Positions 2,089 through 44,410 of a DNA stretch of 51,843 nt are shown here, piece after piece. The notes under the pieces are model-generated. The model ran no database searches. It saw only the letters and a list, made by a program, of their open reading frames with translations, and had not been told where the DNA came from. The stretch is from a virus (taxonomy: Duplodnaviria > Heunggongvirae > Uroviricota > Caudoviricetes). Position 1 is the stretch's first letter. Every line of letters starts with the position of its first letter. Both the position numbers and the translations under genes were made by a program. Location of the stretch: IMG/VR virus record IMGVR_UViG_2851949629_000002; one strand, given 5' to 3'.

Positions 2089-5000
2089 TATGCAAGCCTC
2101 ACAATATAGTTAAATGCGATGTTTTTGACGGTGTTTTCCGCGTTACCCGCAGCGTTAACGGTGATGGTGTGTCCATGTGAGCCAATCGCAACGGAGTGCG
2201 TATGAGCACCAATACCGACAGTATGTGCATGTGCGCCTGCGCTTGCAGCAGTGCCGGACAGCGAGTGGGTATGAGCACCATCTGATGATGTCTTTCCTGC
2301 ATTACGAGTCTGGCCACTACCGCTTGTTGTGCTCATAATCCCCGCGCTTGGATTTGAAATCGCGGTATAACCATTAGGGAAAATGCTCGTGTTCGTGCCA
2401 CCAAATGCACCGGAACTCTTGTGTTGGTGCGCACCGGCACTATTTGCGGTCCCGCTAATACTATGGGTATGCGCCCCGGTGTTATTCGTGGATTTGGTTC
2501 CGTAATCAAACGACGATGTGGTTTTCGTCCCCAAATCCGTACTGGATGCGCTGGCGCTGTGGGTGTGCGATTTAATGCCGTCCTGTTCCTGAGACAATAC
2601 GGCGCGACCACTGGCAGGTTTGCCCTTAATCGTCCAGCCACGCATATCAGGGATCACGCCTGACGGATAAGCGGCTGCAAGTTTCGGGTATGCAGATTTG
2701 TCAAAAGTCTGCCCCTGCATCAGGGCATAACCAGGCGGAACGGTATCTGATGGCCACGGGATTGGTGCGCCGACTGGGTAGCTTTCTGGTGGAAGATTTT
2801 TCGAGGTATAAACTTCTGCCCAGTCTTCCTCAAAACCATAGCCATCTCTTGAGGAACGGTAGAACAGACCTCCATTTCTGTAATGTGCCTTCATCTGCAG
2901 GGTCCGGCAACTTCCGACTCCGGTATAGAAGTTAACCAGAATATAGCTGTCGCCAGAGCGGGTGACATTGTAAGCGCCTGATTCGGCATTCCATGGAACG
3001 CCCCCATCCGCATCGGCATATGTATCCGTTGCCCTTCTGGCAAAAGCAGCCACATGCGCGGCGGTTAAAGTAATATCTTTGGAACCATCAAACTCAACAC
3101 CAGAAACCAGTCTTGGCGTTTGCAGCTTTGTTGCTGTTAATGCATTACCATTCAGACTTGCGGACAGTTTGGTTCCAATAATCAGTTCGCCGGTTGCGTT
3201 ATCAATAGCAAACGGTCTTAATGTATTCCAGCCACCATAAACATCACCTTGATTGGTAAGCAGCAGGTAAGTTTTAGCGCCATCATTACGCCATAATGCA
3301 CCATACTCCCCACCTATCATTCGAATCTGATTACCACCACGCGCTACAATTTCGTCTGTGGCAAAAAGTTTTTTGCACGACAAGTTATCGTTAACGATTA
3401 ACGAATGAGACTCATAAAAACCACGCCCACTCTTAAAATCAAGGATAACGTCCGCCGCGATACATTCAGTCGCCGGATTTGTTGCCCCAAACTTATAGGT
3501 CGTATCATTAACAACGAGATCAGCACCAGGTGCGGATATTGACAGGCCATCTTCGATAAACGCAAAAACAGGGAAAGCAGCGCCATCAACATAGAACACA
3601 GAGCGCAAATCATCGCCCTTATTACTCATCATTATTGAGTGGATGGCTCGTTCATTGTTTTGATATTGCCAGAACATTCCATAAGCATAACGCCCCCTGT
3701 CAGTCCAGCCACCAGGCATAACAAATCCGTTAAACTCGCAGTTATTCATCGGATCGCCTGCGGTTCGCGTTGCCGTGGTGATAATGACCCTTGATGCCAG
3801 TTCGCTTACTGAGCCAGCAGAACGCATAACAACAACAGGGTAATATTTTCCAGATGTTGCACCTGCAGGAGCGTTAACCCGCACATAACGCATACCACGC
3901 TTATCAGCAAAGTCTGTTTTACTGACCGCGTTAATGTTGTTCAGGAAGCGTCCCTTATCGGGTATATCAGCGCCGTTCTGGTCTTTCTGCAGACGTTTCT
4001 CTGCATTGTCATAGGCTGATTTTACTGCCTTTGGCGTTGCCGCCAGCGTTTCAGACGTACTGTTGGTCGCACTGCTGAGCTGTACTACCCCCTTTTTCGT
4101 CGTGCTCGCATCCTCAAGCGCCACGGCGGATGCAATATCCTCTGCACGTTTTGCCGCTGTCTCAGCGCGCGTTGCTGCGGATTCTGCCGTACTTTTGCTC
4201 TGTGCTGCCGCTGCCGCACTGCCAGCAGCCTCTGTCGCCTTCGTGGATGCCGTCGTGGCGCTGCCCCTCGCTGCTGACGCCTGTCTGGTCGCCTCATCTT
4301 TTGAAGCAGACGCAGATGATGCCGATGACGCCGCCGAACTGGCGGACGATGCGGCAGCCGTTTTTGAGGATTCTGCGCTGGTTTCCGACGCTTTCGCGTT
4401 CGTTTCGGATGTCTTCGCTGCGGAAGCAGCCCTCGCTGCTGCAGTGGCCTGTTCAGTGGCTTCGCCAGCCTTCGTTGTGGCTGTTGAAGCGGATGATGCG
4501 GCGCTTTCTGCCGATTTTCCGGCGGCGGTGGCACTGGCTGAGGCCTGCCCGGCACTTGTTGACGCGGCACTGGCAGACGACGCAGCCGCTGTTTTTGAGC
4601 CTGCCGCAGCTGAGGCGCTCTGTCCCGCTGCCGTCTCAGAAGACCTGGCGTTCGTCTCGGACGTTTTTGCCGCCTTCGCGGAATTTGCTGCCGCCGTTGC
4701 CGAGGAAGCTGCGCTACTGGCGCTCGAGGATGCGTTCGTTTCTGATGATTTTGCCGCCTCTTTTGAAGCCGACGCATCCCGGGCTGAGATGGCAGCTTCT
4801 GACGCTTTCGTAGTCGCGGTGGATGCAGAAGTGGCTGCTGATTGTTGTGACGCTGCAGCATTCGTTTCAGACGTTTTCGCGGCACTGGCACTGGTAGCTG
4901 CCGCGCTTTTTGAGGACTCTGCAGCGGCAGCACTTTTTTCCGCTTCAGTGGCCTTTGTTGATGCCGTTCCTGCGCTGGAAGACGCTGACTGAGCCGACGA

Positions 5001-5495
5001 AGCGGCCTGTCCGGCTGACGTGCTGGCTGCGCGTGCTGAGCCTGCAGCATCAGTCGCATGGGTTGCCGCCTCACGGGCAGATGTGCCGGCATCGCCGGCT
5101 GACTTCTTCGCGGCTGCCGTGTTCTGTGCCACCGCGGACGCGTTACGCGCCACCTCTTCCAACATCAGTTCAAAACGGCGCAGAGCCTCCGGACGGGCAT
5201 CCTCCTCCGTCATGGCACCGAGAAAATCATTCAGCGTACCGGGTCGGGAATCTTCATACACGGTGATGGTCCCGGCATGTGACGGCGGGAACCCTTCCAC
5301 CAACAGAATAACGCTGTACTGACCGTACTCAACGTCCATGCTGTAACGCCCGGCTTCATCCGGATTTTCTGAGGCCAGCGTGTTCACCACCACCGTGGTG
5401 CTGTTACGTTTTGCTTTCAGCTGGATTGTGCAGTTCTGTACCGGTTTTCCTGTGCCGTCTTTCAGTACACCTGAAATCTTTACTGCCATATTCAC
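2088..5495 (-). CDS. stf: Side tail fibre protein Stf, mosaic (lambda-like N- and C-terminal parts, different central domain)
   Basis: 1135-aa ORF; N-terminal ~400 aa incl. Ala/Ser-rich repeats and C-terminal GAHxHS repeats match lambda Stf as recalled; central ~500 aa do not. Confidence 0.85.
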
Positions 5496-6222: not shown

Positions 6223-9200
6223 TCAACGAATACTGATGCCGGAAGCGGCTTTTTTGGTCACAATCACCGTACAGTCGGTGATATTACCTGCCCACTGATT
6301 GCCTTTATGGAAAACCTTAAACTCCAGAGTGACGCTTCCCCTGCCACTCGGCATATCAATAACCGCACTGTAGCTACCGGGAATAGCCCCTTTAGTTTCT
6401 CTGGATGCGATTAATACACCGTTTTTGCGAACTTCAAAACCATAACCCGTGTATCTTGTACCTCCCGGGTTATTACCACTTCCCGGATCGCTATACGCTA
6501 TTCCGTTAAAGATAATGGGCGGAATAATGATTTGACGGTCAAAGTTATGATCATCGCTTATGGTGACTGTAACCGTCCCGTTTGGTGTTTCCGTGTTACC
6601 CCACGTACCAGCCTGTTTCGGGAATGATTTGGATACAGCTTTAACGAAGTCACCTCTGACCTGAGTCGCCTCCAGCATGCCCTTAATCGTACAGTTTTCA
6701 TTTACCGTGACATTGTTGAGCGTCCCGGCGTTCGCATTCACACTGCCACTGATATCCGCATTTTTAGCGGTCAGCTTTCCGTCCGGAGTCAGGGAAAATG
6801 CCGGTGGATTTCCACCGCTGGTAATGGTGGGGGCCGTCAGGCGTTTCAGGAACACGTCGTTCATGAATATCTGATCGCCCTGACCAACAAACATCGGTTT
6901 TGTGTTGCCATTCGCAGGATTAACCATCGCAATCCTGTCCGCCGCCAGCAGCACCTGACTCTGCATGCCGTCAGGGGTGTTCTCAATACCGGCACCAATA
7001 CCCGCGATATAAAGGCGTCCGTCCTGCATCTGCTGCAGCTTCACAGCCCACATGCTGTTCAGGTTATTATTTGTATCAACCTGAACCTTCTGTATCTGCT
7101 GAATTGCCGCACTCTGGTCTTCCAGTTTCTTATTGACGGTCTGCGTGATTTCATTGCTGACATCCGTAATGGACGTCCTGATTTCAGCCAGGTCAGGCGC
7201 AAGCTGACCGTTATCAATCTGCGTCCACAGCTCCTGAGCCAGATGGGTTTTCCCTATCTCGCCTTTGAAAAAATCCAGATAACCGGATGCATCATCACTC
7301 GGCTGACCAACAGCCTCCACGAATGCCGATTTGCCAACGGTGTTCACACTGCGGATATAAAAGTAATAATCATGGCCCGGTTTGATATTGATACTGGCGG
7401 CTATCCAGTACAGCGCCGTGCCAAGATAGCGTGCTGTGGTTTCAACCTGCCTGATATCCGCAATCCGCTTTTCCGAGAACCAGAACTCAAACTGTACCGT
7501 CGGGTCATAAACAGCAAGATGCGGCGTGGCGGTTATCTGAAAATAGCCCGGCGTCAGCTCAATCCTCGACGGTGCTGCCGGTGCGGCAATCCGGAACGAT
7601 ACCGACGCCGGATCACCCTGCTGCCCCCGGGCATTTACCGCCCGGACTGTCAGCCTGTAGTTCCCCAGCGCCAGTTGCGTGAAGCGGTATGTGGTTTCCG
7701 TCGTCCGGGCCGTGCTGACCAGCCGCTCACTGCCGTCGTCCGCTGTTACGGTCAGACGGAGCAGGAAGCTCACGCCCTTCACCACCTTCGGTGTGTCCCA
7801 TCGCGCCAGCACCTGGTATTCCCCACTGTCTGCGGTGACTTCTGCGGTCAGGTGCTGCACCGCTGGCGGCGTGACACCATTCACCGTGCCGCTCTGGTCG
7901 CCGTCAAAGTGCGCCCCGTTATCCACGATGGCTTCTTTTTCCGGTACATGCTGCACGGCGGTGATGGCATACGTGCCGTCGGCGTTCTCACGGATACTCA
8001 CGCAGCGGAACAGGCGCTGGCGCAGCGTCGGCAGCTTCAGCCCCCACACGCTGTATTCAGCAACGCCGTCAGGAACACGGCTCACTTTCACCTTCACGCC
8101 GTCGGTGACGGACTGAACCTCCACGCTGACCGGATTGCCACTTCCGTCAACCAGGCTTATCAGCGTGGTACCGGAGGATGGCAGCGTGATTTCACGGTCG
8201 AGCGTCAGCGTCCGGGTCTGGCTGTTTACCGCCAGCACGCGCCCGCCGGTGCTGATACCGGCATAGTCATCATCACAGATTTCAATGACATCGCCCGGCA
8301 CATGGCGAAGCCCTTCGGCACCCACGCTGAAGTCCACGGTCTGCGTTTCCAGCAGTTCTGTTTTAATCAGCCACAGCCCGGCTCGGTGCGCCTGCCCCCG
8401 ACTGGTACAGCCAAACGCATCCATCTTCGTGACGTTACGACCGTAACGGGCAATGGCCTGCGAGTCCTCCACAAGCTCTGTTGCCGTCTCCCAGCCGTTA
8501 TCCGGGTCAATCCAGTTCACCTCAACGGCATTATGGCGGTCTTTCAGGGCGCTGAAGCTGTAGCGGAACGGCGCGCCATCATCCGGCATCACCACATTAC
8601 TGCGGTTATAGGTCCACACCTTATCCGACGGTCGGTCCTGCACGAACGTCAGCGTCTGCCCGTTCCATACCGGCATACAGCGCATCGCCGAGCAGAAATC
8701 ACTGAGCACATCCCACGCCTTACGCTGTGTGGTCAGGTACGCATTACAGGTGATGCGCGGCTCCGTGCCGCCAAAGCCGTCCGGCACTGACTGGTCGCAG
8801 TACTGGCCGATGACATACAGCGCCCATTTGTCCACATCCGCCGCACCAAGACGTTTCCCCATGCCGTAGCGTGGATGGGTCAGCATATCCCACAGACACC
8901 AGGCCATGTTATTGCTGTATGCTGGCTTAAACGTTCCGTCCCAGATACCGCTGTATTGCCGCGTCTGCGGGTTATAGTTCGACGGCACCTGCAGAATACG
9001 CCCGCGCAGATGATAATTACGGCTCACCTGCTGGCTGCCGAACTGCTCCGAGTCCACCTGCACGCCGACCAGTGCCGTGTTCGGGTAGCACTGTTTCACA
9101 TCGATGATTTCGGTGTATGACGACCAGAGCGTTTTGTTCTGCAGCTGGTCTGTGGTGCTGTCCGGCGTCATCCTGCGCATCCGGATATTAAACGGGCGCG

Positions 9201-9654
9201 GCGGCAGGTTATCCACCACCACCGAGGCCAGATACTGCGAGGTGGTTTTGCCCTTAATGGTGATGTCTTTTTCCGTCACCCAGCCACCGTTACGTTGTAT
9301 CTGAACCAGCAGGCGGACTTCCGATGGATTCCTGTCCCCCTTTGAGGTGGTTTCCACCAGTGCCTGCACGCCGAAAGTAAAACGCAGACGGTCAATGTTT
9401 GCCGACGTGATGGTCCGGGTGATCGGCGTGTCATATTTCACTTCTGTACCGAGCACCGTCTCGGAGCCGGAGGATTCAAATCCCTCCGGCGGTGTCTGCT
9501 CCTGCTCACCGGCCCGGAACACCACCGTGACGCCGGAGATATTGGTATTCCCCTCACTGTCCAGCACTGGCGTACTGTTCAGCAGCACGCTTTTTAATCC
9601 ATCCACCGGACCTTCAACCGGCCCTTCGCTGATGGCATCGATCACACTCAGCAA
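6223..9654 (-). CDS. J: Tail tip host-specificity protein J, in-frame body; native ATG (9717-9719) is out of frame because of a 1-nt deletion near codon 8; C-terminal receptor-binding region differs from lambda J
   Basis: Track ORF starts at a TTG; upstream ATG GGT AAA GGC AGC AGT AAG GG encodes MGKGSSKG then shifts frame and stops after 17 codons, while the +1 frame continues [26 protein letters not shown]. Confidence 0.8.
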
Positions 9655-9778
9655 CTGCGTGGACTTCAGGTTGTCCTTCGCTTCGCGCGGAGTATGCCCT
9701 TACTGCTGCCTTTACCCATTCCTCACGCTCCATAAACGACAAAACCGCCCGGAGGCGGTTTCACATAAACGTTTTTCA

Positions 9779-11096: not shown

Positions 11097-11771
11097 TTAC
11101 TGCGAAAGTTTGTTAATGGAAAGGAAGCCGCCAAAGTTGCCGACGTTATTGCGAAACTTACAGCCGCTCAGGCATTTGCTGCATTTATCCTTCGTGATAT
11201 CGGAGGTCGGCTGGTCATATTCATCCGCGACCGCCGGACCGTGATAACCGCACTCATCACCGCGATAGGTCCAGGTGCAGGTATTAGCCAGCATGATGCG
11301 CCCCGGAAAAACGGCACCATCCGTTTCCGTCGGTGTGGACAACACAAAGGAGGCACTGACCGCACTCAGTTCGCTGCACTGCTCTATGCGCCAGCGGCTG
11401 ATCACCTCCTGCTCCGGATCGGCGTCGCTGTTTCCGTTGACGAAGTTCACCGCATCCAGAAAACGGGCGCTGAACTCAACACGCAACATACTGACCCGCG
11501 ACGACCATTTTGCGCAGGTCACCTTTATCTGCCGCCACTCATAAGGCGGCGTCCACAGAAAGGATTTCCAGCCCCCGTGCTCTTCCAGAAACGACTCCAG
11601 CGCCGTGGCCTCCTCACGGGAGACAGACAGCGTCACGCTGTACGTTTTCAGGTCAGCGTTCAGCCCGGCAGGCGCACGCTGGGAATAGCCATCACCAAAG
11701 CGCACCTCCCTGACGGAAGGAGCCGATGTCACATCCATCCCGGGTTTCACTTTCCAGCGGAAGGTTTTCAT
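11097..11771 (-). CDS. Fused tail protein: N-terminal ~103 aa of gpM joined in frame to C-terminal ~120 aa of gpL (apparent 353-bp deletion)
   Basis: 224-aa ORF; starts MKTFRWKVKPGMDV (gpM) and ends ...CSKCLSGCKFRNNVGNFGGFLSINKLSQ (gpL); H-to-K spacing is 675 bp versus ~1028 bp expected for separate M and L. Confidence 0.7.
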   Translation of the reverse strand: MKTFRWKVKPGMDVTSAPSVREVRFGDGYSQRAPAGLNADLKTYSVTLSVSREEATALESFLEEHGGWKSFLWTPPYEWRQIKVTCAKWSSRVSMLRVEFSARFLDAVNFVNGNSDADPEQEVISRWRIEQCSELSAVSASFVLSTPTETDGAVFPGRIMLANTCTWTYRGDECGYHGPAVADEYDQPTSDITKDKCSKCLSGCKFRNNVGNFGGFLSINKLSQ

Positions 11772-14329
11772 CGTCCACCTCCGGAGAACAGACCACCATC
11801 GCGCATCTGTGCCTGGATTTCATCACGGGCACCCTTGCGGGCCATGTCATACACTGCCTTCAGAGCAGCCGGACCTATCTGCCCGTTCGTGCCGTCGTTG
11901 TTAATCACCACATGGTTATTCTGCTCAAACGTCCCGGACGCCTGCGACCGGCTGTCTGCCATGCTGCCCGGTGTACCGACATAACCGCCGGTGGCATAGC
12001 CGCGCATCAGCCGGTAAAGATTCCCCACGCCAATCCGGCTGGTTGCCTCCTTCGTGAAGACAAATTCACCACGATGAACAATCCCCGCTGGCTCATATTT
12101 GCCGCCGGTTCCCGTAAATCCTCCGGTCGCAAAATGGAATTTCGCCGCAGCTGCCTGAATGGCTGTACCGCCTGACGCTGATGCTCCACCACTGGCAGCA
12201 CCGCCAATGGCGCTGCCGATACTCCCGACAATCCCCACCATTGCCTGCTTAAGCAGAATTTCTGTCATCATGGACAGCACGGAACGGGTGAAGCTGCGCC
12301 AGTTCTGCTCACTGCCGGTCAGCATCGCCGCCATATTCTGCGCAATACCATCAAAGGTCTGCGCGGCTGCACTTTTAACCTGCGACATACTGTCCGTGGC
12401 GCTCTCTTCCCACTCACTCCAGCCGGACTTCAGGCCTGCCATCCAGCTCCCGCGAAGCTGGTCTTCAGCCGCCCAGGTCTTTTTCTGCTCTGACATGACG
12501 TTATTCAGCGCCAGAGGATTATCGCCATACTGTTCCTTCAGGCGCTGTTCTGTGGCTTCCCGCGCTGCCTGCCGGTCAGTCAGCCCCCGGCTTTTCGCAT
12601 CAATGGCGGCCCGTTTTGCCCGTTGCTGCTGTGCGAATTTATCCGCCTGCTGCGCCAGCGCGTTCAGGCGCTCCTGATACGTAACCTTGTCGCCAAGTGC
12701 AGCCAGCTGGCGTTTGTACTCCAGCGTCTCATCTTTATGCGCCAGCAGGGATTTCTCCTGTGCAGACAGCTGGCGACGTTGCGCCGCCTCCTCCAGTACC
12801 GCGAACTGACTCTCCGCCTTCCACAAATCCCGGCGCTGCTGGCTGATTTTCTCATTTGCTCCGGCATGCTTCTCCAGCGTCCGGAGTTCAGCCTGAAGCG
12901 TCAGCAGGGCAGCATGAGCACTGTCTTCCTGACGATCGCCCGCAGACACCTTCACGCCGGACTGTTTCGGCTTTTTCAGCGTCGCTTCATAGTCCTTTTT
13001 CGCCGCCGCCATCAGCGTGTTGTAATCTGCCTGCAGAATTTTCCCGTCCTTCAGTGCCTTGTTCAGTTCTTCCTGACGGGCGGTATATTTCTCCAGCGGC
13101 GTCTGCAGCCGTTCGTAAGCCTTCTGCGCCTCTTCGGTATATTTCAGCCGTGACGCTTCAGTATCGCTCTGCTGCTGCGCATTTGTGTCCTGTTGACTCT
13201 GCTGTTCAGCCTTCTTTCTCGCGGCTTCAAGCGCAAGACGGGCCTTTTCACGATCATCCCAGTAACGCGCCCGCGCTTCATCGTTAACAAAATAATCATC
13301 CTTGCGCAGACTCCAGATGTCGTCCGCTTTCTTAAACGCAGCCTCTGCCTTAATCAGCATCTCCTGCGCGGTATCAGGACGACCAATATCCAGCACCGCA
13401 TCCCACATGGATTTGAATGCCCGCGCTGTCCTGTCTGCCCAGGTCTCCAGCGTACCCATGTTCTCTTTCAGGCGGCGGGTCTGGTCATCAAACCCTTTCG
13501 TCGCGGCCTCGTTCGCCGCCTGCAATGCCCCGGCTTCATCGCCGGAACGCTGCAACTGAGCAACATACGCAATCTGCTCCGCCGTCACGTTATGGAACTG
13601 ACGTGCCATCGCTGTCAGTCCCGACGTCGGGTCTGTGGTCAGCTTCCCGAAGGCTTCAGCGACCTTGTCCACCTCCACGCCGGATGCAGAGGAGAAACGC
13701 GCCACACTCTGGCTGATCGCCTCAAACTGCTCACCACCACGCACACCGGCATTCACCAGCGCCGTCAGTGACTCGCTGGTCTGGTTAAACGTCAGCCCTG
13801 CCGCCTGCCCGGCTCTGGACAGGGCCAGAATACGATCTGCCGTCAGTCCCGACTGATTGCCGGAAAGGACCAGCGTTTTGTTGAAATCGGACAGGGTTGA
13901 GTTGCCCTGATACCAGGCATACGCCAGCGCACCAGTCGCCACCGCCAGCGAGGTGGCCCCCACCATCGGCAGGGTGATCGCACCGGCAAGCCCCCTGAAC
14001 ATGGGGATCATCCCGCCGAAGGAGTCCTTAACCTGACCACCCTGTTGCAGCAGGATCAGCCACGGACTTTGCCCGCCTGCAAGCTGCGTGGCCACGTCGG
14101 TGAACTGTGCAGGCAGCATACGCATGGCGGCTTTATACTGCCCGACGGAAATCCCCGCTTTCTGTGCAGCCAGCGCCTGTCGGCTCAGCGACTGTTCAAC
14201 GACTGCCGCTGTTTTTTTCGCATCACTTTCCGTACCGGAAAAATGACGCCTGACTCTGGCCATCTGCTCGTCAAATCTGGCCGCATCCAGACTTAAATCA
14301 ACGACCAGATCGCCTACCGGTTCAGCCAT
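11768..14329 (-). CDS. H: Tail tape measure protein H
   Basis: 853-aa ORF, same length and context as lambda gpH. Confidence 0.9.
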   Translation of the reverse strand: MAEPVGDLVVDLSLDAARFDEQMARVRRHFSGTESDAKKTAAVVEQSLSRQALAAQKAGISVGQYKAAMRMLPAQFTDVATQLAGGQSPWLILLQQGGQVKDSFGGMIPMFRGLAGAITLPMVGATSLAVATGALAYAWYQGNSTLSDFNKTLVLSGNQSGLTADRILALSRAGQAAGLTFNQTSESLTALVNAGVRGGEQFEAISQSVARFSSASGVEVDKVAEAFGKLTTDPTSGLTAMARQFHNVTAEQIAYVAQLQRSGDEAGALQAANEAATKGFDDQTRRLKENMGTLETWADRTARAFKSMWDAVLDIGRPDTAQEMLIKAEAAFKKADDIWSLRKDDYFVNDEARARYWDDREKARLALEAARKKAEQQSQQDTNAQQQSDTEASRLKYTEEAQKAYERLQTPLEKYTARQEELNKALKDGKILQADYNTLMAAAKKDYEATLKKPKQSGVKVSAGDRQEDSAHAALLTLQAELRTLEKHAGANEKISQQRRDLWKAESQFAVLEEAAQRRQLSAQEKSLLAHKDETLEYKRQLAALGDKVTYQERLNALAQQADKFAQQQRAKRAAIDAKSRGLTDRQAAREATEQRLKEQYGDNPLALNNVMSEQKKTWAAEDQLRGSWMAGLKSGWSEWEESATDSMSQVKSAAAQTFDGIAQNMAAMLTGSEQNWRSFTRSVLSMMTEILLKQAMVGIVGSIGSAIGGAASGGASASGGTAIQAAAAKFHFATGGFTGTGGKYEPAGIVHRGEFVFTKEATSRIGVGNLYRLMRGYATGGYVGTPGSMADSRSQASGTFEQNNHVVINNDGTNGQIGPAALKAVYDMARKGARDEIQAQMRDGGLFSGGGR

Positions 14330-26444: not shown

Positions 26445-26969
26445 TTAATAGCCATCAGAAGTAATCGCTACAGATTTCAATCCCTCAATGTCATCCTTGG
26501 ACAGGGCGAACCATTCACCGTGCTTTCTCTTTGCGGCAAATTTGCGATGAAGCATGTTTTCAGTTTCTCTTCCACCAGGGATCAGGCACTCAAGCTTCAA
26601 GCAGTCTGGTCCAGAGTTGCCAAGCGATTTGATGCGTTGTGGAATGTTGGATGAATACCCAATTTTGGTTAGCCCAGTTTTCTTCGATGACAAAACGTAT
26701 ACCTGAGGAGGTTCTTTTCTCTGGTCTTCCATTACACGTCTCATTGTTGCCATAAGTCCGCCGTGCATCAGCATTTCAACAAAGAACGCTGACCGAACAC
26801 CTGACGACTTAAGCATGCCAGAAAATTCACTTGCCAATTCCATTAACTCTGCGATGTTTTCAGGAACTTTTTGGCAGTTATCTTCCTTGTATAAGGAAAT
26901 CATTCTTTGAAGCTTTTCTTCTAATTGGTTCATAGCGTCTTTACCTTTTAGAAAGTGAGCCTGTCTCAC
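26445..26969 (-). CDS. T5orf172 (GIY-YIG-like) domain protein, moron
   Basis: 174-aa ORF; C-terminal VYVLSSKKTGLTKIGYSSNIPQRIKSLG...ENMLHRKFAAKRKHGEWFAL fits the T5orf172/MUG113 motif pattern as I recall it; sits where lambda carries bor. Confidence 0.55.
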   Translation of the reverse strand: MRQAHFLKGKDAMNQLEEKLQRMISLYKEDNCQKVPENIAELMELASEFSGMLKSSGVRSAFFVEMLMHGGLMATMRRVMEDQRKEPPQVYVLSSKKTGLTKIGYSSNIPQRIKSLGNSGPDCLKLECLIPGGRETENMLHRKFAAKRKHGEWFALSKDDIEGLKSVAITSDGY

Positions 26970-28306: not shown

Positions 28307-28878
28307 AACCCCACCTCGCAGACAAAGCGGGTGTAAATTGAGGGAATACTACGAAACGTAACAGACTCGGAGTCAGTGAATAACTCAGGTATTGGGTTAT
28401 CAGCTAATATCGAGACTCAAAAAATGGAAAAACCCGCTCGACGGCGGGTTTAAGCTGTGTGACGAAGTAACCACTCTTAACAGCATAACCAATTTTTTAC
28501 GTACGTAAACCACTAAATGATATTTGCGAGAATGCTACCGAGTATTGAAAACACCACTACAAATACATAAGCAAATCTCAACAAATAACCAACAAATAAT
28601 TTCCAGTGTTATTTTTAGCCGGTTTAAATTGAACCTTCAAATTATAGAGCACTTATAAATAACAGCCGTTAATATAAATTGGCTAATAGATTTATTTTTA
28701 TTCAGCCAAGAGCCATGAATAGGATTCGATAGAAAAAAGTTCAGATAAAAATAGAGATCTACTTCACAAATCAAACGAGAAACCAAAACTTACATCTTGA
28801 AATAATCACATTGATTAGATGAATATTTATCGCGCAGTGACATCATTTTTTAATAATAGTTCAAAAAAAGGGCTCACG

Positions 28879-29976
28879 ATGAAAAAATTAACAGTGGCAA
28901 TTTCTGCTGTAGCTGCATCAGTACTGATGGCGATGTCTGCTCAGGCAGCTGAAATTTATAATAAAGACAGTAACAAGCTGGATCTGTACGGGAAAGTTAA
29001 TGCTAAGCACTATTTCTCCTCTAATGATGCAGATGATGGTGATACTACTTATGCCCGTCTTGGCTTCAAAGGTGAAACCCAAATCAACGATCAACTGACT
29101 GGTTTCGGTCAGTGGGAATATGAATTCAAAGGCAACCGCGCTGAATCTCAAGGTTCCTCCAAAGATAAAACCCGTCTTGCCTTCGCTGGCCTGAAATTCG
29201 GTGACTACGGCTCCATCGATTACGGCCGTAACTACGGTGTAGCATACGACATCGGTGCGTGGACTGACGTCCTGCCAGAATTCGGTGGTGACACTTGGAC
29301 TCAAACCGACGTGTTCATGACTCAACGTGCAACTGGTGTTGCAACCTATCGTAACAACGACTTCTTTGGTCTGGTTGATGGTCTGAATTTTGCTGCTCAG
29401 TACCAAGGCAAAAACGATCGTAGCGATTTCGATAACTACACTGAAGGTAACGGTGATGGCTTCGGTTTCTCTGCTACCTATGAATACGAAGGATTCGGTA
29501 TCGGTGCAACTTATGCGAAATCTGATCGTACCGACACTCAAGTTAATGCAGGGAAAGTTCTTCCTGAAGTATTTGCTTCCGGTAAAAATGCAGAAGTTTG
29601 GGCCGCAGGTCTGAAATATGACGCTAACAACATTTACCTGGCCACTACCTATTCTGAAACCCAGAATATGACTGTATTTGCTGATCACTTCGTTGCTAAT
29701 AAAGCCCAAAACTTCGAAGCTGTTGCACAATATCAGTTCGATTTCGGTCTGCGTCCGTCCGTTGCTTACCTGCAATCTAAAGGTAAGGATCTTGGAGTAT
29801 GGGGCGATCAGGACTTAGTCAAATATGTTGATGTAGGTGCAACCTATTACTTCAACAAAAATATGTCTACTTTCGTTGATTACAAAATCAACCTGCTTGA
29901 CAAAAATGACTTCACTAAAGCACTCGGTGTAAGCACTGATGACATCGTTGCTGTAGGTCTGGTTTACCAGTTCTAA
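28879..29976 (+). CDS. OmpC-family porin (Lc/NmpC-like), lysogenic-conversion gene
   Basis: Track ORF starts at 28819; likely start is [23 protein letters not shown] signal peptide; 16-strand porin motifs, ends YQF. Confidence 0.85.
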
Positions 29977-34336: not shown

Positions 34337-34366
34337 GTAAGCGTCAACGGAGCACCGTATTGACGC

Positions 34367-35720
34367 TTATTTATTAGTGAGTACTACGTTCCATGGCAGG
34401 AGTTCGTCAACTCGGTTGGAAGGCCATTCCGGCAGTACGCTCAGGATATGGCGCAGATACGCTTCCGGATCGATACCATTCAACCGGCAGGTGCCGATCA
34501 GCCCGTACAACAGTGCACCACGCTCGCCGCCGTGATCGCTACCGAAGAACACGTAATTTTTCTTTCCGAGACAGACTGCACGAAGCGCTCTTTCCGCTGT
34601 GTTATTGTCCGCCTCCGCCAGACCGTCATCACAGAAGTTGCACAACGCAACCCAGTGCTTCCTGATATACCGGAACGCATCTCTCAGACGGCATTTTTTC
34701 GATAACGTGTGTTCTTTCTCCTGCATCAGCTTATACAGGGAAGTCAGTAGCGGTTTACTCTGCATTTGCCTGACCGCCAGGCGTTCAGACACCGGCAACC
34801 CGCGTATTTCGTGCTCAATGGCGTACAGTTCACTGATTCGCTTCAGGGCTTCTTCTGCCGTCGCACTTTTGCTGCTGATGTATACATCGTGGATTTTTCG
34901 CCGGGCATGGGCCCAGCACGCAACTTCTGTCAGTGCACCACCTTCACGTTCTGCACTGAACAACCTGTCGTAACCTGTGAACGCATCTGCCTGCAGGATA
35001 CCCCGGAAGGGACGAAGGTGTTGCTCCGGATGTTTACCCTGATGGTCCGGTGAGTAGGCGAACCAGACCGCCGGAGGTTCTGGCGAACCGGCATTTCGGT
35101 CATCCCGGACATACGTCCAGATATATCCTGTTTTCGCCTTCTTCCTGCCCGGTGCCAGTACTTTTACTGGTGTGTCATCAGTGTGAACCTTGCGGGTGTT
35201 CATCACATAACTGTACAGGGCATCATTCAGCGGAGTCATTAACTGGCAGCACGCATCAACCCAGTTGGAGAGTAAGGCACGGCTCAGTTCGACACCCTGG
35301 CGGGCAAAGATTTCACTCTGACGATACAGTGGCAGGTGTTCGCAGTATTTTCCCGTTAACACGCGGGCAAGTAACCCCGGGCCCGCGATACCACGCTCTA
35401 TCGGACGGGATGGTGCCGGTGCTTCAACGATGCAGTCACATTTTGTACAGGCTTTTTTTACCCGTTCTGTGCGGATCACTTTCAGGGCGCTGCTCACCAG
35501 CTCCAGTTGTTCTGCGCTGACTTCCCCCAGATAATCCAGCTCACCGCCACACTCCGGGCAACAGCTTTCTTCTGGCTCCAGGCGGTATATTTCACGGGGG
35601 AGATGTGCCGGTAACGGACGACAATGGCGCGACTGTCGCAACTGGCGGGGAACCAGCGGGTCATCCTCACGCCCACTGTAACGATCGCTTTCCTGCTCGC
35701 GTTGTTTCAGCAGGACTTCA
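34367..35720 (-). pseudogene. Outer IS66 transposase TnpC, C-terminal ~440 codons, separated from its N-terminus by the inner IS
   Basis: ORF continues ...LLKQREQESDRYSG upstream to the inner-IS junction; ~90% similar to the intact inner TnpC. Confidence 0.8.
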
Positions 35721-35813
35721 GCCTGTTCGTAAGCGTAAACTGACCGCCGTATGTAGCCATCAGACGAGAATTGGTAACTTAGACGCCCATCTGATATAGA
35801 CGGACATCTAAGT

Positions 35814-36239
35814 ATGGAATTACAGGACTGGCGAAAAGAACCTCGTAAAAACTATTCGAATGAATTCAAACTTCGTATGGTGGAACTGGCATCACAACCT
35901 GGAGCTTGTGTTGCACAGATTGCACGTGAAAATGGCGTCAATGATAATGTTATTTTCAAATGGCTCAGGCTCTGGCAGAACGAAGGGCGTGTTTCGCGGC
36001 GTCTTCCGGTAACGACCTCTTCTGACACTGGCGTTGAATTATTACCTGTAGAAATAACGCCGGATGAGCAGAAAGAACCTGTGGCGGCCATTGCGCCGTC
36101 TTTATCCACTTCCACTCAGACCAGAGTCAGTGCCAGTTCCTGCAAGGTGGAATTCCGTCACGGTAACATGACGCTGGAAAATCCATCGCCAGAGCTGCTC
36201 ACAGTGTTGATCCGTGAACTGACCGGGAGGGGAAGATGA
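35814..36239 (+). CDS. IS66 accessory protein OrfA (TnpA)
   Basis: 141-aa ORF, first gene of the IS66 three-gene arrangement. Confidence 0.8.
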   Translation: MELQDWRKEPRKNYSNEFKLRMVELASQPGACVAQIARENGVNDNVIFKWLRLWQNEGRVSRRLPVTTSSDTGVELLPVEITPDEQKEPVAAIAPSLSTSTQTRVSASSCKVEFRHGNMTLENPSPELLTVLIRELTGRGR

Positions 36240-36586
36240 TCTCACTCCCATCAGGTACCCGTATCTGGCTCGTTGCCGGCGTTACCGATATGCGTAAATC
36301 CTTCAACGGACTGGGAGAACAGGTACAACATGTGCTGAATGATAATCCCTTCTCCGGTCACCTGTTTATCTTCCGTGGCCGACGGGGTGACACCGTCAAA
36401 ATTCTTTGGGCTGATGCTGATGGTCTGTGCCTGTTCACCAAACGCCTGGAGGAAGGCCAGTTTATCTGGCCTGCGGTACGTGACGGCAAGGTATCCATTA
36501 CCCGCTCGCAACTGGCAATGCTCCTCGATAAGCTGGACTGGCGTCAGCCAAAAACATCCAGCCGTAACTCACTGACAATGTTGTAA
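36236..36586 (+). CDS. IS66 accessory protein OrfB (TnpB)
   Basis: 116-aa ORF MISLPSGTRIWLVAGVTDMRKSFNGLGEQ... overlapping orfA stop. Confidence 0.85.
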   Translation: MISLPSGTRIWLVAGVTDMRKSFNGLGEQVQHVLNDNPFSGHLFIFRGRRGDTVKILWADADGLCLFTKRLEEGQFIWPAVRDGKVSITRSQLAMLLDKLDWRQPKTSSRNSLTML

Positions 36587-36616
36587 AAAACTCCTGACCG
36601 CATTATAAAAACGGTC

Positions 36617-38230
36617 ATGAGTCAGAAATACCTCATTCGCATCGCAGAGCTGGAAAGGTTGCTCTCTGAGCAGGCTGAAGCCCTCCGTCAGAAAGACCAG
36701 CAACTGAGTCTGGTTGAAGAGACGGAAGCCTTCCTGCGCTCTGCACTGACACGTGCCGAAGAAAAGATCGAAGAAGATGAACGGGAAATAGAACATCTGC
36801 GGGCTCAGATAGAAAAACTGCGCCGGATGCTGTTCGGTACCCGTTCTGAAAAACTGCGTCGTGAAGTTGAACTGGCTGAGGCTCTGCTGAAACAACGTGA
36901 ACAGGACAGCGATCGTTACAGTGGGCGGGAAGACGATCCTCAGGTTCCCCGCCAGTTGCGACAGTCGCGCCATCGTCGTCCGTTACCGGCACACCTTCCC
37001 CGTGAAATACACCGCCTGGAGCCAGAAGAAAGCTGTTGCCCGGAGTGTGGCGGTGAGCTGGATTATCTGGGGGAAGTCAGCGCTGAACAGCTGGAACTGG
37101 TGAGCAGTGCCCTGAAAGTGATCCGCACAGAACGGGTAAAAAAAGCCTGTACAAAATGTGACTGTATTGTTGAAGCACCGGCGCCGTCCCGCCCGATAGA
37201 GCGTGGTATCGCGGGCCCCGGATTACTTGCCCGCGTGTTAACGGGAAAATACTGCGAACATCTGCCACTGTATCGTCAGAGTGAAATCTTTGCCCGCCAG
37301 GGTGTCGAACTGAGCCGGGCCTTACTCTCCAACTGGGTTGACGCGTGCTGCCAGTTAATGACACCGGTGAATGATGCCCTGTACCGTTATGTAATGAACA
37401 CCCGCAAGGTTCACACTGATGACACACCGGTAAAGGTACTGGCACCGGGTCAGAAAAAGGCGAAAACAGGGCGTATCTGGACGTATGTCCGGGATGATCG
37501 CAATGTGGGTTCGTCATCTCCTCCAGCGGTCTGGTTCGCGTACTCGCCGAACCGGCAGGGGAAACACCCGGAGCAACACCTCCGCCCCTTCCGGGGTATC
37601 CTGCAGGCGGATGCGTTCACAGGTTACGACAGGTTGTTCAGTGCAGAACGTGAAGGTGGTGCACTGACAGAAGTTGCGTGCTGGGCCCATGCCCGGCGAA
37701 AAATCCACGATGTATACATCAGCAGCAAAAGTGCGACGGCAGAAGAAGCCCTGAAGCGAATCAGTGAACTGTACGCCATCGAGGATGAAATACGGGGATT
37801 ACCGGAGTCAGAGCGTCTTGCCGTCAGGCAGCAGCGAAGCAAAGTGTTACTGACGTCGCTGCATGAATGGATGGTGGAGAAGAATGGTACGCTGTCGAAA
37901 AAATCCAGACTGGGCGAAGCGTTCAGCTATGTACTGAATCAGTGGGATGCCCTCTGTTATTACAGTGATGACGGTCTGGCGGAGGCGGATAATAATGCTG
38001 CGGAAAGAGCGCTTCGTGCAGTCTGTCTCGGAAAGAAAAACTTTATGTTCTTCGGCAGCGATCACGGCGGCGAGCGAGGAGCACTGTTGTACGGGCTGAT
38101 CAGCACCTGCCGACTGAACGGTATCGATCCGGAAGCGTATCTGCGCCATATCCTGAGCGTACTGCCGGAATGGCCTTCCAACCGAGTTGACGAACTCCTG
38201 CCATGGAACGTAGTACTCACCAATAAATAA
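36617..38230 (+). CDS. IS66 transposase TnpC
   Basis: 537-aa ORF with N-terminal coiled-coil, CxxC zinc motifs and DDE-type core. Confidence 0.85.
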   Translation: MSQKYLIRIAELERLLSEQAEALRQKDQQLSLVEETEAFLRSALTRAEEKIEEDEREIEHLRAQIEKLRRMLFGTRSEKLRREVELAEALLKQREQDSDRYSGREDDPQVPRQLRQSRHRRPLPAHLPREIHRLEPEESCCPECGGELDYLGEVSAEQLELVSSALKVIRTERVKKACTKCDCIVEAPAPSRPIERGIAGPGLLARVLTGKYCEHLPLYRQSEIFARQGVELSRALLSNWVDACCQLMTPVNDALYRYVMNTRKVHTDDTPVKVLAPGQKKAKTGRIWTYVRDDRNVGSSSPPAVWFAYSPNRQGKHPEQHLRPFRGILQADAFTGYDRLFSAEREGGALTEVACWAHARRKIHDVYISSKSATAEEALKRISELYAIEDEIRGLPESERLAVRQQRSKVLLTSLHEWMVEKNGTLSKKSRLGEAFSYVLNQWDALCYYSDDGLAEADNNAAERALRAVCLGKKNFMFFGSDHGGERGALLYGLISTCRLNGIDPEAYLRHILSVLPEWPSNRVDELLPWNVVLTNK

Positions 38231-38256
38231 GCGTCAATACGGCACTCCGTTAACGC

Positions 38257-38520
38257 TTACGCCTGTTCAACCTCACTACGCAGTTTTTCAGAACGGGTTC
38301 CGAACAGCATCCGGCGCAGTTTTTCTATCTGAGCCCGCAGATGCTCTATTTCTCGCTCATCTTCTTCGATCTTTTCTTCGGCACGTGCCAGTGCAGAGCG
38401 CAGGAAGGCCTCCGTCTCTTCAACCAGACTCAGTTGCTGGTCTTTCTGACGGAGGGCTTCAGCCTGCTCAGAGAGCAGCCTTTCCAGCTCAGCGATGCGA
38501 ATGAGGTATTTCTGACCCAT
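38257..38520 (-). pseudogene. Outer IS66 TnpC N-terminal fragment (87 codons)
   Basis: MGQKYLIRIAELERLLSEQAEALRQKDQQL... ends at the inner IS junction. Confidence 0.8.
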
Positions 38521-38550
38521 GGCCGTTTTTATAATCCGGCCCGGCGTTTT

Positions 38551-38901
38551 TTACAACATTGTCAGTGCGTTAAGGCGGGATGTTTTTGGCTGACGCCAGT
38601 CCAGCTTATCGAGGAGCATTGCCAGTTGCGAGCGGGTAATGGATATCTTACCGTCATGCACCGCAGGCCAGATAAACTGACCTTCCTCAAGGCGTTTGGT
38701 GAACAGGCACAGACCATCAGCATCAGCCCACAGGATTTTAATCGTGTCTCCCCGTCGGCCACGGAAGATAAACAGGTGACCGGAGAAGGGGTTATCATCC
38801 AGCACATGCTGTATCTGCTCCCCCAGACCGTTGAAGGATTTACGCATATCAGTAACGCCGGCAACGAGCCAGATACGGGTACCTGATGGGAGTGAAATCA
38901 T
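38551..38901 (-). CDS. Outer IS66 OrfB (TnpB)
   Basis: 116-aa ORF ~90% similar to the inner orfB. Confidence 0.8.
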   Translation of the reverse strand: MISLPSGTRIWLVAGVTDMRKSFNGLGEQIQHVLDDNPFSGHLFIFRGRRGDTIKILWADADGLCLFTKRLEEGQFIWPAVHDGKISITRSQLAMLLDKLDWRQPKTSRLNALTML

Positions 38902-39335
38902 CGTCCCCTCCCGGTCAGCTCACGGATCAACACCGTGAGCAGCTCTGGTGAAGGATTTTCCAGCATCATTTTACCGTAATGGAATTCCACATGGCAGGAA
39001 GCTGCACAAGCAACTGATAATGCCTCCGGAGCAGGAGCATCTGTAGCACAGCGCGGGGTGTCGATAAGTTCCACTGGAACCAGAGTCGGAGAGGCCGGAA
39101 AAGATTGTGATACTGTAGGGCCTACAATAGTTGGAGGCATTCTACGAGAAATACGTCCTTCTCTTTGCCAGAGGCGTAGCCATTTAAAAATCAGGTTGTT
39201 ATCAACGCCATGTTCCCGGGCCAGTTGTGCAACATTGGCATTTGGTTTCGAAGCCAGTTCAACCATATGAAGTTTAAATTCATTAGAAAATATCCGGCGG
39301 GTTCCGGAGCGCCAGTCTGTAGGTTTATCCATCAA
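38898..39335 (-). CDS. Outer IS66 OrfA (TnpA)
   Basis: 145-aa ORF, diverged homologue of the inner orfA. Confidence 0.75.
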   Translation of the reverse strand: MMDKPTDWRSGTRRIFSNEFKLHMVELASKPNANVAQLAREHGVDNNLIFKWLRLWQREGRISRRMPPTIVGPTVSQSFPASPTLVPVELIDTPRCATDAPAPEALSVACAASCHVEFHYGKMMLENPSPELLTVLIRELTGRGR

Positions 39336-39415
39336 TAGAACTCCGTCTAATTTAGAAGGAGCTCTAATTTAGTCTGCAAGGAGCAAGTGTTACAGACGGC
39401 ATTGGCTTTACGCTT

Positions 39416-39869
39416 ACGTAATAGTGTCTTTTGTGTCCCCCTGTTTTGAGGGATAGCAATCCCCCAATTTGAGGGATGTTTTATCCCTCGTTTTAGGGGA
39501 TTGTCCCTCGTTTTGAGGGATACACCATTCTGAGATGTTTTTATTTGGTCCAAACATGCCGCCTTGCTGCTTGATAATATTCATTCTGACGAGTTCTAAC
39601 TTGGCTTCATTGCACCGTTTGACAGGTAACTTTGTAATCTCGCTAAGTTGAGAATCGGTGATTCTGTCCATTGGTTTATTCCACCCATAGGTTTTACGCA
39701 GAATGGCAAGCAGCACTTTAAACTGTCGCTTGGTCAGATCTGCGCCCGAATAAGCCTCAAGCAGCATATTTGATAGTCTGGCGTAACCATCATCGAGATC
39801 TGCCACATTACGCTCCTGTCCGGCAAAGTTACCTCTGCCGAAGTTGAGTATTTTTGCTGTATTTGTCAT
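39416..39869 (-). pseudogene. O: Replication initiator O, N-terminal fragment
   Basis: MTNTAKILNFGRGNFAGQERNVADLDDGYARLSNMLLEAYSGADLTKRQF..., lambda O N-terminus; reading frame runs into the IS. Confidence 0.85.
39436..39521. repeat. ori-lambda iterons (four ~18-bp O-binding repeats)
   Basis: Four copies of TCCCTC-N6-GAGGGA-like inverted units inside the O N-terminal coding region. Confidence 0.8.
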
Positions 39870-39901: not shown

Positions 39902-40195
39902 TCAGAACTCCATCTGGATTTGTTCAGAACGCTCGGTTGCCGCCGGGCGTTTTTTATTGGTGAGAATCGCAGCAACTTGTCGCGCCAATCGAGCCATGTC
40001 GTCGTCAACGACCCCCCATTCAAGAACAGCAAGCAGCATTGAGAACTTGGGAATCCAGTCTCTCTTCCACCTGCTGATCTGCGACTTATCAACTCCCACA
40101 GCTTCCGCTGTCTTCTCAGTTCCAAGCATTGCGATTTTGTTAAGCAACGCACTCTCGATTCGTAGTGCCTCGTTGCGTTTGTTTGCACGAACCAT
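39902..40195 (-). CDS. cII: Transcriptional activator cII
   Basis: MVRANKRNEALRIESALLNKIAMLGTEKTAEAVGVDKSQISRWKRDWIPKF..., lambda cII (track ORF has an upstream extension). Confidence 0.9.
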   Translation of the reverse strand: MVRANKRNEALRIESALLNKIAMLGTEKTAEAVGVDKSQISRWKRDWIPKFSMLLAVLEWGVVDDDMARLARQVAAILTNKKRPAATERSEQIQMEF

Positions 40196-40274
40196 ATGTA
40201 AGTATTTCCTTAGATAACAATTGATTGAATGTATGCAAATAAATGCATACACCATAGGTGTGGTTTAATTGGAT

Positions 40275-40289
40275 GCCCTTTTTCAGGGC
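40275..40289 (-). promoter_or_regulatory. nutR boxB hairpin
   Basis: GCCCTGAAAAAGGGC on the minus strand between cro and cII. Confidence 0.7.
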
Positions 40290-40313
40290 GGGGATGGGTA
40301 AGAGCGGGGTTAT

Positions 40314-40523
<210 letters not shown>

Positions 40524-40540
40524 TTAGTACATGCAACTAT

Positions 40541-40604
40541 TATCACCGCCAGAGGTAAAATAGTCAACACGCACGGTGTTAGATATTTATCCCTTGCGGT
40601 GATA
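40541..40604. promoter_or_regulatory. Right operator OR1-OR2-OR3 with overlapping pR and pRM
   Basis: TATCACCGCCAGAGGTA (40541-40557), CAACACGCACGGTGTTA (40565-40581), TATCCCTTGCGGTGATA (40588-40604). Confidence 0.9.
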
Positions 40605-40611
40605 GATTTAA

Positions 40612-41328
<717 letters not shown>

Positions 41329-41345
41329 TAGGAAGTAAGTTTTAT

Positions 41346-41375
41346 GTTGACGGCACAGTCAACTTGGCATAGATT
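41346..41375 (+). promoter_or_regulatory. Candidate sigma70 promoter with -35 inside a perfect palindrome GTTGAC-N6-GTCAAC
   Basis: TTGACG, 17-nt spacer, TAGATT; palindrome at 41346-41363. Confidence 0.3.
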
Positions 41376-41385
41376 AATTAAACCA

Positions 41386-41446
41386 AGCCCAGCCCCGTTC
41401 GCAGACAATTGTTAATATCTGCATAACGGCTCTGGGCTATTTTTTT
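41386..41446 (+). terminator. Long interrupted hairpin plus T7 run (terminator/attenuator-like leader) ending 9 nt before the NYN-gene ATG
   Basis: AGCCCAGCCCCGTT ... AACGGCTCTGGGCT followed by TTTTTTT. Confidence 0.45.
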
Positions 41447-41455
41447 GGGACTCTT

Positions 41456-42313
41456 ATGAAGAAAGCAGCAATTTTAATTGATGCGGGTTTTTTCATGCAG
41501 CGTGTTCATGCTACGCATCGTAAACACTTCGCCGAGCATGAACTGACTGCGCAATGCATAATGAAAGTAATATGGTCAATGGTTCTTTCCCATCTTAATG
41601 GAAAACGTCAATCACAAGAACGTAGGGAACCGCTTGAGCTTTATAGAATTTACTTCTATGACTGTCCACCACTCGACATTCAAACACGCCTTCCACTTCC
41701 TGAGCCTGGCAATAAGACGCCTGGTCGCAAGAATTTCAAACTCGAAAAATCATATATTCTGAGAACGGAGCTGCATGAAGAGTTAAGAAAAACTCGAAAA
41801 ACAGCCTTAAGATTAGGGAATCTTGTTGATAATAAGCGATGGCAACTAACTACATTCTCCCTTGATGCTCTGATGAAAGGAACGAAAAAATGGGATGAAC
41901 TGACAAATGATGATTTTTACTATGACATCAAACAAAAACAAGTTGATATCAAGCTAGGGATGGATATCACGACTTTAGCTTATGAAAAACTTGTTGATGT
42001 AATTGTCCTTGTTGCTGGGGACTCAGACTTTGTGCCTGCCGCCAAACACGCCAGAATTAAAGGTATTGATTTTATTCTTGATCCACTAAGACAGAATGTT
42101 ACCCCATCACTGTCAGAGCACATTGATGGAGTTCAGTCATACAGCTTGATATCAGGACTTGCCGATGCTTTACATGTTGAGCCAGACCCGGCACCTGACT
42201 GGTGGGAAGATCGAAAAAAAGGCAAGCCTAGAGGAAAAAACAATAGCGGTAAACGCAGGTATGGAAACACTCAAGCTGAGTCTGCAAAGAAACATCAAAG
42301 AAATAAACGATAA
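41456..42313 (+). CDS. NYN/LabA-like (PIN-fold) predicted ribonuclease with basic C-terminal tail, in the slot lambda uses for rexA-rexB
   Basis: 285-aa ORF; motifs AILIDAGFF, VDIKLGMDI, VLVAGDSDFVPAAKHARIKGIDFILDP; Lys/Arg-rich last ~35 aa; not RexA or RexB. Confidence 0.6.
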   Translation: MKKAAILIDAGFFMQRVHATHRKHFAEHELTAQCIMKVIWSMVLSHLNGKRQSQERREPLELYRIYFYDCPPLDIQTRLPLPEPGNKTPGRKNFKLEKSYILRTELHEELRKTRKTALRLGNLVDNKRWQLTTFSLDALMKGTKKWDELTNDDFYYDIKQKQVDIKLGMDITTLAYEKLVDVIVLVAGDSDFVPAAKHARIKGIDFILDPLRQNVTPSLSEHIDGVQSYSLISGLADALHVEPDPAPDWWEDRKKGKPRGKNNSGKRRYGNTQAESAKKHQRNKR

Positions 42314-42322
42314 TCCCATCAA

Positions 42323-42348
42323 CCCGGCCACCGAGCCGGGTTTTCTTT
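42323..42348 (+). terminator. Rho-independent terminator after the NYN gene
   Basis: CCCGGC-CACCGA-GCCGGG hairpin followed by TTTTCTTT. Confidence 0.6.
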
Positions 42349-42503
42349 GCCTCACGATCGCCCCACCTAAAAACACATAACCAATTGTATTTATTTTAAA
42401 ATTAATAGGTGCAACTCACTAAACAACGCAATTCTGATCTCTCGATCACCTCCCAAGCCACACAACCCTGCAAAAAATAAATCTATATAAAAAACATACA
42501 GAT

Positions 42504-42566
42504 AACCATCTGCGGTGATAAATTATCTCTGGCGGTGTTGACACAAATACCACTAGCGGTGATACT
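42504..42566 (+). promoter_or_regulatory. Left operator OL3-OL2-OL1 and promoter pL
   Basis: AACCATCTGCGGTGATA, TATCTCTGGCGGTGTTG, then TTGACA...TACCACTAGCGGTGATACT. Confidence 0.85.
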
Positions 42567-42605
42567 AAACACACCAGCAGGACGCACTAACCCACATGAA
42601 GGTGA

Positions 42606-42636
42606 TGCTCTTAAAAATTAAGCCCTGAAGAAGGGC
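42606..42636 (+). promoter_or_regulatory. nutL (boxA-like then boxB GCCCTGAAGAAGGGC)
   Basis: TGCTCTTAA then GCCCTGAAGAAGGGC hairpin upstream of N. Confidence 0.8.
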
Positions 42637-42794
42637 AGCATTCAAAGCAGAAGGCTTTGGGGTGTGTGATACGAAACGAAACATTGGCCGGAAGTGCGAA
42701 TCCGGATTAGCTGCAAATGAGCCAATCGTGGGGTGTTTTCGTTCAGGACTACGACTCCCACACACCACCAAAGCTAACTGACAAGAGAATCCAG

Positions 42795-43659
<865 letters not shown>

Positions 43660-43782
43660 TTAAAAGACAGGCATACTAATAAACACTGCACTGTGTATTT
43701 ATTCCAACGAGTGAATACACGGAGCAATGTCGCTCGTAACTAAACAGGAGCCGAGTTGTTCTGATTATTGGAAATCTTCTTT

Positions 43783-43808
43783 GCCCTCCAGTGTGAGGGC
43801 GATTTTTT
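43783..43808 (+). terminator. Terminator-like hairpin upstream of ea10
   Basis: GCCCTC-loop-GAGGGC followed by GATTTTTTA. Confidence 0.4.
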
Positions 43809-43828
43809 ATCTATGAGGATATGAATAG

Positions 43829-44197: not shown

Positions 44198-44269
44198 GTG
44201 CGGCTTTACCGCATACCAATAACGCTTCACTCGAGGCGTTTTTCGTTATGTATAAATAAGGAGCACACC

Positions 44270-44410
44270 ATGCAATATGCCATTGCAGGGTGGCCTGTTG
44301 CTGGCTGCCCTTCCGAATCTTTACTTGAACGAATCACCCGTAAATTACGTGACGGATGGAAACGCCTTATCGACATACTTAATCAGCCAGGAGTACCCAA
44401 AAATGGATAA
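44270..44410 (+). CDS. cIII: cIII (FtsH inhibitor)
   Basis: [46 protein letters not shown] with AAGGAG RBS. Confidence 0.85.
   Translation: MQYAIAGWPVAGCPSESLLERITRKLRDGWKRLIDILNQPGVPKNG

Follow-up and report, generated by a model that had tools for sequence, protein, structure and literature searches.

Phage lambda uses −1 frameshifting in G-T, where two overlapping frames share a tail gene in the same operon as J and where a conserved slippery sequence has been kept among phages. Laboratory lambda also carries a frameshift in the tail-fibre gene stf that is reportedly treated in another study; stf is dispensable for plaque formation, and J is essential. Cryptic lambdoid prophages of Escherichia coli are inactivated by IS insertion, deletion and point frameshift, while their cargo genes stay. 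The stf frameshift, which sets the PaPa strain apart from Ur-lambda, blocks expression of the gene and has been propagated with the lineage (PMC10721106). The J protein itself (NP_040600; PDB 8iyk, 8xcg) is encoded between I and lom, and its N-terminal region and the C-terminal Fe-S domain of gpL together make the HDII-insertion domain (PMC10721106).

A J gene with a broken reading frame is found in the window, which is the whole 51,843-nucleotide stretch of viral DNA that was analysed (IMG/VR record IMGVR_UViG_2851949629_000002); all positions given below refer to it. The gene is very probably a true frameshift pseudogene in a defective, decaying prophage. As in lambda G-T, two overlapping frames meet in a tail gene, but the change of frame in the window J has neither a conserved slippery sequence nor a history of being kept among phages. 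The lesion recalls that of laboratory stf, with the reverse gene hit: in the window stf (2091-5489, about 1132 aa) is intact, a state shared with Ur-lambda but lost in laboratory lambda, and it is J that is broken. The lesions of the window prophage (IS, deletion and frameshift) are the same as those of cryptic prophages of the DLP12, Rac and Qin type, from which it differs in being far less decayed, with three lesions found and the other lambda homologues full length.

Relationship of the prophage to lambda

The integrase gene (int, 49355-50425) adjoins, at the right end of the window, a gene of the pectinesterase family (ybhC type). The closely related prophage of E. coli 181.1 sits beside ybhB-bioA, the lambda attachment region. 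The genes of the window compare with those of lambda as follows:

cI: 98.3% amino-acid identity
cro and cII: 100% amino-acid identity
O: 99-100% amino-acid identity
int: 98.6% amino-acid identity
N: 94% identity
head genes A-E: 97-100% amino-acid identity
Z, U, V, T and H: 97-100% amino-acid identity
FI and G: 86-89% amino-acid identity

The prophage is a close relative of lambda with, judged by its sequence, true lambda immunity and early genes (39905-50425). Neither rexA nor rexB of lambda was matched in the window, and an ORF of 285 aa lies at 41456-42313 within the immunity and early region. In a tblastn map of about 45 proteins, taken from lambda and the E. coli 181.1 prophage, each fell into a single frame of the window except J, M-L and O; apart from these, all genes with a lambda homologue that were identified there are full length. 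The gene order K-I-J-lom is present in the same map.

A one-base deletion at the 5′ end of J

On sequence, domains and synteny, the window gene is assigned to the lambda gpJ family, without the uninterrupted frame from the conserved MGKG start that its relatives have. It shares 82% amino-acid identity with lambda J over residues 8-1131, and a scan of 6223-9699 places all six Pfam domains of gpJ above their cut-offs (FNIII-A_GpJ, Phage-tail_3, Ig_J, Ig_J_second, Phage_Tail_Tip and Ig_GpJ_C). The start of the body has its match in residues 8-107 of lambda gpJ chains of solved structure, for example 8iyk_J, and the gene lies between I and lom as in lambda. The 5′ untranslated region, the Shine-Dalgarno sequence and the first seven codons are also the same as in lambda J; the difference is that lambda has one G more in codons 7-8, and that in the window the start and the body stand in different frames. 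The features of the site are the following:

9717..9719, minus strand: ATG start codon of J, with the Shine-Dalgarno sequence GGAG at 9731-9728 (sequence; SD/anti-SD duplex −6.8 kcal/mol)
9702-9700, minus strand: in-frame TAA directly upstream of the J body (sequence)
9697..9699, minus strand: run of three G (G3), where one base has been lost (aligned against lambda, ev099 and E. coli S30)
9666..9719, minus strand: residual ORF of 17 codons, ending at TGA 9668-9666 (translation)
6223..9699, minus strand: J body, codons 8-1165 plus the stop codon, out of the start frame (tblastn, Pfam and PDB match)
9652..9654, minus strand: TTG, equal to codon 22, the first in-frame NTG of the body, without a Shine-Dalgarno sequence (duplex energy)
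9645 and 9606, minus strand: further in-frame candidates, GTG at codon 25 and GTG at codon 38

The ATG at 9719-9717 was placed as the start of J by reading the sequence and by alignment with relatives. It is followed by GGT AAA GGC AGC AGT AAG GGC ATA CTC, and translation from it meets the premature stop after 17 codons, TGA at 9668-9666. The frame displaced by one base runs into an ORF of 1143 aa with a TTG start (6223..9654, minus strand). Over 190 bases around the start, alignment of the window with lambda (NC_001416), phage ev099 and the E. coli S30 prophage contains a single gap, at which the window reads AAGGGCAT and all three relatives alike read AAGGGGCAT. At codons 7-8 the window has AAG-GGC-ATA and the relatives have AAG-GGG-CAT (Lys-Gly-His), a run of four G (G4) having become one of three. 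AAG-GGG-CAT is also what about 100 further phages and E. coli prophages in the thousands carry. Beyond this point the gene is in order: the intact 1165-aa J of the E. coli 181.1 prophage aligns to the window over residues 8-1165 in one frame and at 97.6% identity, and within these residues tblastn with the same protein revealed no second stop or change of frame.

The original prediction had held that the frame opened by this ATG breaks at codon 8 and soon stops, that its continuation in the shifted frame is the 1143-aa body, and that one G was lost from a G run. The translation and the sole gap in the alignment bear out each of these points, coordinates included, and the comparison with the 5′ end of lambda J, proposed there as a way to refute the finding, leaves it standing in that lambda has four G.

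Lesions in M-L and O

Two further genes of the prophage are broken, at these positions:

11097..11771, minus strand: in-frame M-L fusion ORF of 224 aa (tblastn, blastn junction, Pfam)
34337..39416: insertion of about 5.1 kb splitting the replication gene O (tblastn, and Pfam on six ORFs)

The M-L fusion results from a deletion of 353 bp, with its junction at 11467-11469 in a CGC microhomology (blastn), that costs M approximately its last 8 codons and L approximately its first 109. The product retains the Pfam domain Phage_min_tail and the C-terminal part of Phage_tail_L, and none of 5426 complete E. coli genomes contains the 51-mer that spans the junction. Residues 1-166 of gpL are hub domain I of the last tail ring (PMC10721106), and the M-L fusion should thus abolish assembly of the tail tip. 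Most of this hub domain is taken out by the deletion.

In O, residues 1-151 map to 39869-39417 and residues 149-299 to 34336-33884 (tblastn), and the two halves share three residues, in keeping with a target-site duplication that would measure about 8 bp. The inserted DNA comprises two IS66-family elements, one of which has landed inside the other (DDE_Tnp_IS66, TnpB_IS66 and HTH_Tnp_1 domains). The outer element lies on the minus strand, with tnpA at 38898-39335 and a truncated tnpC at 34367-35641, and the inner element lies on the plus strand at 35814-38230.

Inheritance and rarity of the G3 allele

The M-L fusion protein was used as a marker of the prophage lineage, the exact 224-aa protein being present on only three public contigs. 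None of the three is as long as the window, and the window was therefore not cut from any of them. The Logan assembly of ERR1937262 and the assembly GCA_017760925.1, which both have this marker, carry the identical sequence agtaagggcatactcc with three G. The ERR1937262 contig aligns with the window over 20132 bases with 24 mismatches and zero gaps, and the GCA_017760925.1 contig over 12559 bases with 2 mismatches and zero gaps; both contigs stop short of the O region, and the comparison covers the J side. SNPs at window positions 17674 and 10234 are common to the two contigs and distinct from the window. The J proteins of the window and of the ERR1937262 contig differ by one residue.

The mismatches to the ERR1937262 contig are unevenly spread, with 22 of the 24 packed into 565 bp of J (8626-9190 in the window, 12582-13146 in the contig) where they cause just one amino-acid change; the GCA_017760925.1 contig stops just before this patch. 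It looks like gene conversion from a paralogous prophage J, or else like an assembly chimera.

Outside this lineage the allele is rare. With 501 bases around the site as the query, 110 phage records were hit, as were 4343 of 5426 complete E. coli genomes at 8750 places in total; among the matches listed (40 phage and 40 E. coli) all span 502-503 bases, one or two over the query. An exact-pattern scan of IMG/VR found four G in at least 120 contigs and three G in one, with no match to a version with five G. A 42-mer built so that the G3 allele alone can seed a megablast match was found in one of the 5426 complete E. coli genomes, and the G3 pattern was not found in GTDB species representatives or JGI metagenomes. 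The closest complete RefSeq E. coli genome is 99.4% identical over the 501 bases and 98.0% over J, and none reaches 100%. Exact-protein look-up of the truncated J returned no match to either the V-first or the M-first version. A phase-variable homopolymer switch (contingency locus) was considered and rejected, the tract being just three or four G in length, with G3 nearly absent and G5 absent.

Two other records also have three G. In E. coli ESBL 15 (NZ_CP041678), ten consecutive genes of the tail region, from G to the side tail-fibre gene and J included, are annotated as 'frameshifted', and J, I and K also fall into several frames; in IMGVR_UViG_2874920711_000002, each of J, I, K and lom is spread over more than one frame. 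The G3 of these two indel-ridden assemblies is an evident artefact, from which it follows that the run can be miscalled. In both records the reading frame is interrupted in most, if not all, of the tail genes that were examined, and they are unreliable for the inference of indels.

A homopolymer error of sequencing or assembly in the window, where the true DNA would have four G and an intact J, draws what weight it has from these artefacts, but they do not bear on the window itself. There, no further frame break was met among the approximately 45 lambda-homologous genes, and an assembly in which only J, M-L and O are broken is not an indel-prone one. In addition, two further assemblies of the lineage give three G and show no indel over 20 kb, and a run of four bases is short for systematic error on an accurate platform. 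The error suggested by the original prediction as an alternative is by these comparisons largely excluded for the window, and we consider it highly improbable. Since the other assemblies repeat the G3 and agree with the window on the length of all remaining homopolymers across 20 kb, the allele appears instead to be a real and inherited mutation that is very unlikely to be an error, although the comparison assemblies may come from the same or a sister isolate.

Expression of J

In the body frame, TAA at 9702-9700 stands directly before GGG CAT, and a start upstream of the body is thus impossible. The true start and the candidates within the body have these predicted SD/anti-SD duplex energies:

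ATG 9719 (true start), J codon 1: −6.8 kcal/mol
TTG 9654, J codon 22: −0.5 kcal/mol
GTG 9645, J codon 25: −2.2 kcal/mol
GTG 9606, J codon 38: −5.7 kcal/mol

An N-terminally truncated but working J might be made if ribosomes reinitiated at TTG 9654 or GTG 9645 after translating the 17-codon ORF. The layout has some features in favour of such a route, as the stop at TGA 9668-9666 is close upstream, the TTG and GTG follow 12 to 21 bases downstream, 1140 downstream codons are intact, and an automatic gene caller took a GTG start on the ERR1937262 contig and predicted a product of 1140 aa. However, neither codon has a Shine-Dalgarno sequence (−0.5 and −2.2 kcal/mol, against −6.8 at the true start), and the product would lack 21-24 N-terminal residues that are conserved across distant phages; conservation of J residues 4-81 is recognisable in 1497 phage records, among them Klebsiella, Ralstonia, Pseudomonas and Vibrio phages. 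The missing residues belong to the part of gpJ that joins with gpL in a composite domain (PMC10721106). Moreover, gpL is truncated in the window, and the tail tip could therefore not assemble. Reinitiation is conceivable and should be weak, and a working protein from it is very unlikely. The N-truncated product from TTG that the original prediction had put forward is thus possible as a trace at most, given its duplex energy of −0.5 kcal/mol and the loss of conserved residues.

Recoding is the other route by which J might still be read. If peptidyl-tRNA-Gly slipped by −1 from GGC to the overlapping GGG while the ribosome stood at AUA, a rare codon in E. coli, full-length J would be restored; from the sequence alone, the slip would yield the exact wild-type K-G-H, with the −1 frame then reading CAU ACU. 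The hallmarks of a programmed event are nonetheless missing. There is no slippery heptamer of the form X XXY YYZ at the frame junction (AGU AAG GGC AUA), and no stable stimulatory structure when the 101 nt of 9630-9730 are folded (z = 0.39; 129 of 200 shuffled versions are as stable). Rfam found no known RNA element at the J site, its matches in the window being just IS009 and the cIII thermoregulator. The two-frame layout is also not conserved, as the relatives are in frame and IMG/VR holds at least 120 contigs with four G against one with three. Programmed frameshifting in J was rejected on the absence of heptamer, structure and conservation alike, and restoration of J by recoding is even less probable than a working reinitiated protein. 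Any leak by slippage is probably about 1% or less, and trace amounts of J could arise by this means or by reinitiation. It is similarly far-fetched that the G3 allele provides a leaky, tunable J through −1 slippage, or a reinitiated N-truncated J kept for the benefit of the host, for all that 1158 codons are still open.

J as a probable pseudogene in a decaying prophage

The interpretation of J as a true frameshift pseudogene draws on an indel that sets the gene apart from its intact orthologues and leads to a premature stop, on the repetition of the allele in other assemblies, and on the presence of other inactivating lesions. The original prediction had listed a pseudogene among its options, and the inheritance of the allele, the M-L deletion and the IS-split O lend that option support.

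The course of events may be envisaged as follows. A run of four G across codons 7-8 would have lost one G in an ancestor of the prophage lineage, most likely by replication slippage. Ribosomes starting at the normal ATG would then end after 17 codons and, because no start with a ribosome-binding site serves the remaining 1158 codons, little or no J protein would be made; J protein is accordingly predicted to be absent and J function to be lost. With both the L/M tail-tip pair and O broken, the prophage would be unable to make infectious particles and J would be free of selection. Neither replication nor tail assembly is to be expected of the prophage, in which the J frameshift is one of three independent lesions. 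The decay is recent, since the J body has no second lesion and the other structural genes are intact.

The case is one of ordinary prophage decay, in which only the particular allele is new. For annotation, the proper label for J is a frameshifted pseudogene and not a 'tail protein' of 1140-1143 aa that begins at an internal GTG or TTG. The prophage should likewise be scored as defective though it is nearly complete in appearance; given the full length of its other lambda homologues, prophage-completeness tools would probably call it intact. It offers a snapshot of early decay in a close natural relative of lambda, in which a point frameshift, a 353-bp microhomology deletion and a nested IS66 insertion stand together.

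Other features of the window

The stretch between the Q and lysis regions contains a porin gene of 385 aa (28819-29976, plus strand; Pfam Porin_1, E = 5.6e-157). Porin cargo of this kind is exemplified by nmpC of DLP12 and lc of phage PA-2. Between the lysis genes and cos/nu1 there is an ORF of 174 aa (26445-26969, minus strand) with T5orf172/MUG113 domains. Downstream of tfa, positions 1-1507 of the window contain no ORF of at least 90 aa, and the counterpart of this stretch in E. coli 181.1 (12001-13505 of its contig) is also without an annotated feature. No tRNA genes were found in the window. The Rfam match to IS009, an sRNA-like family, falls at 1547-1745 inside the 3′ end of tfa, and that to the cIII thermoregulator at 44257-44315.
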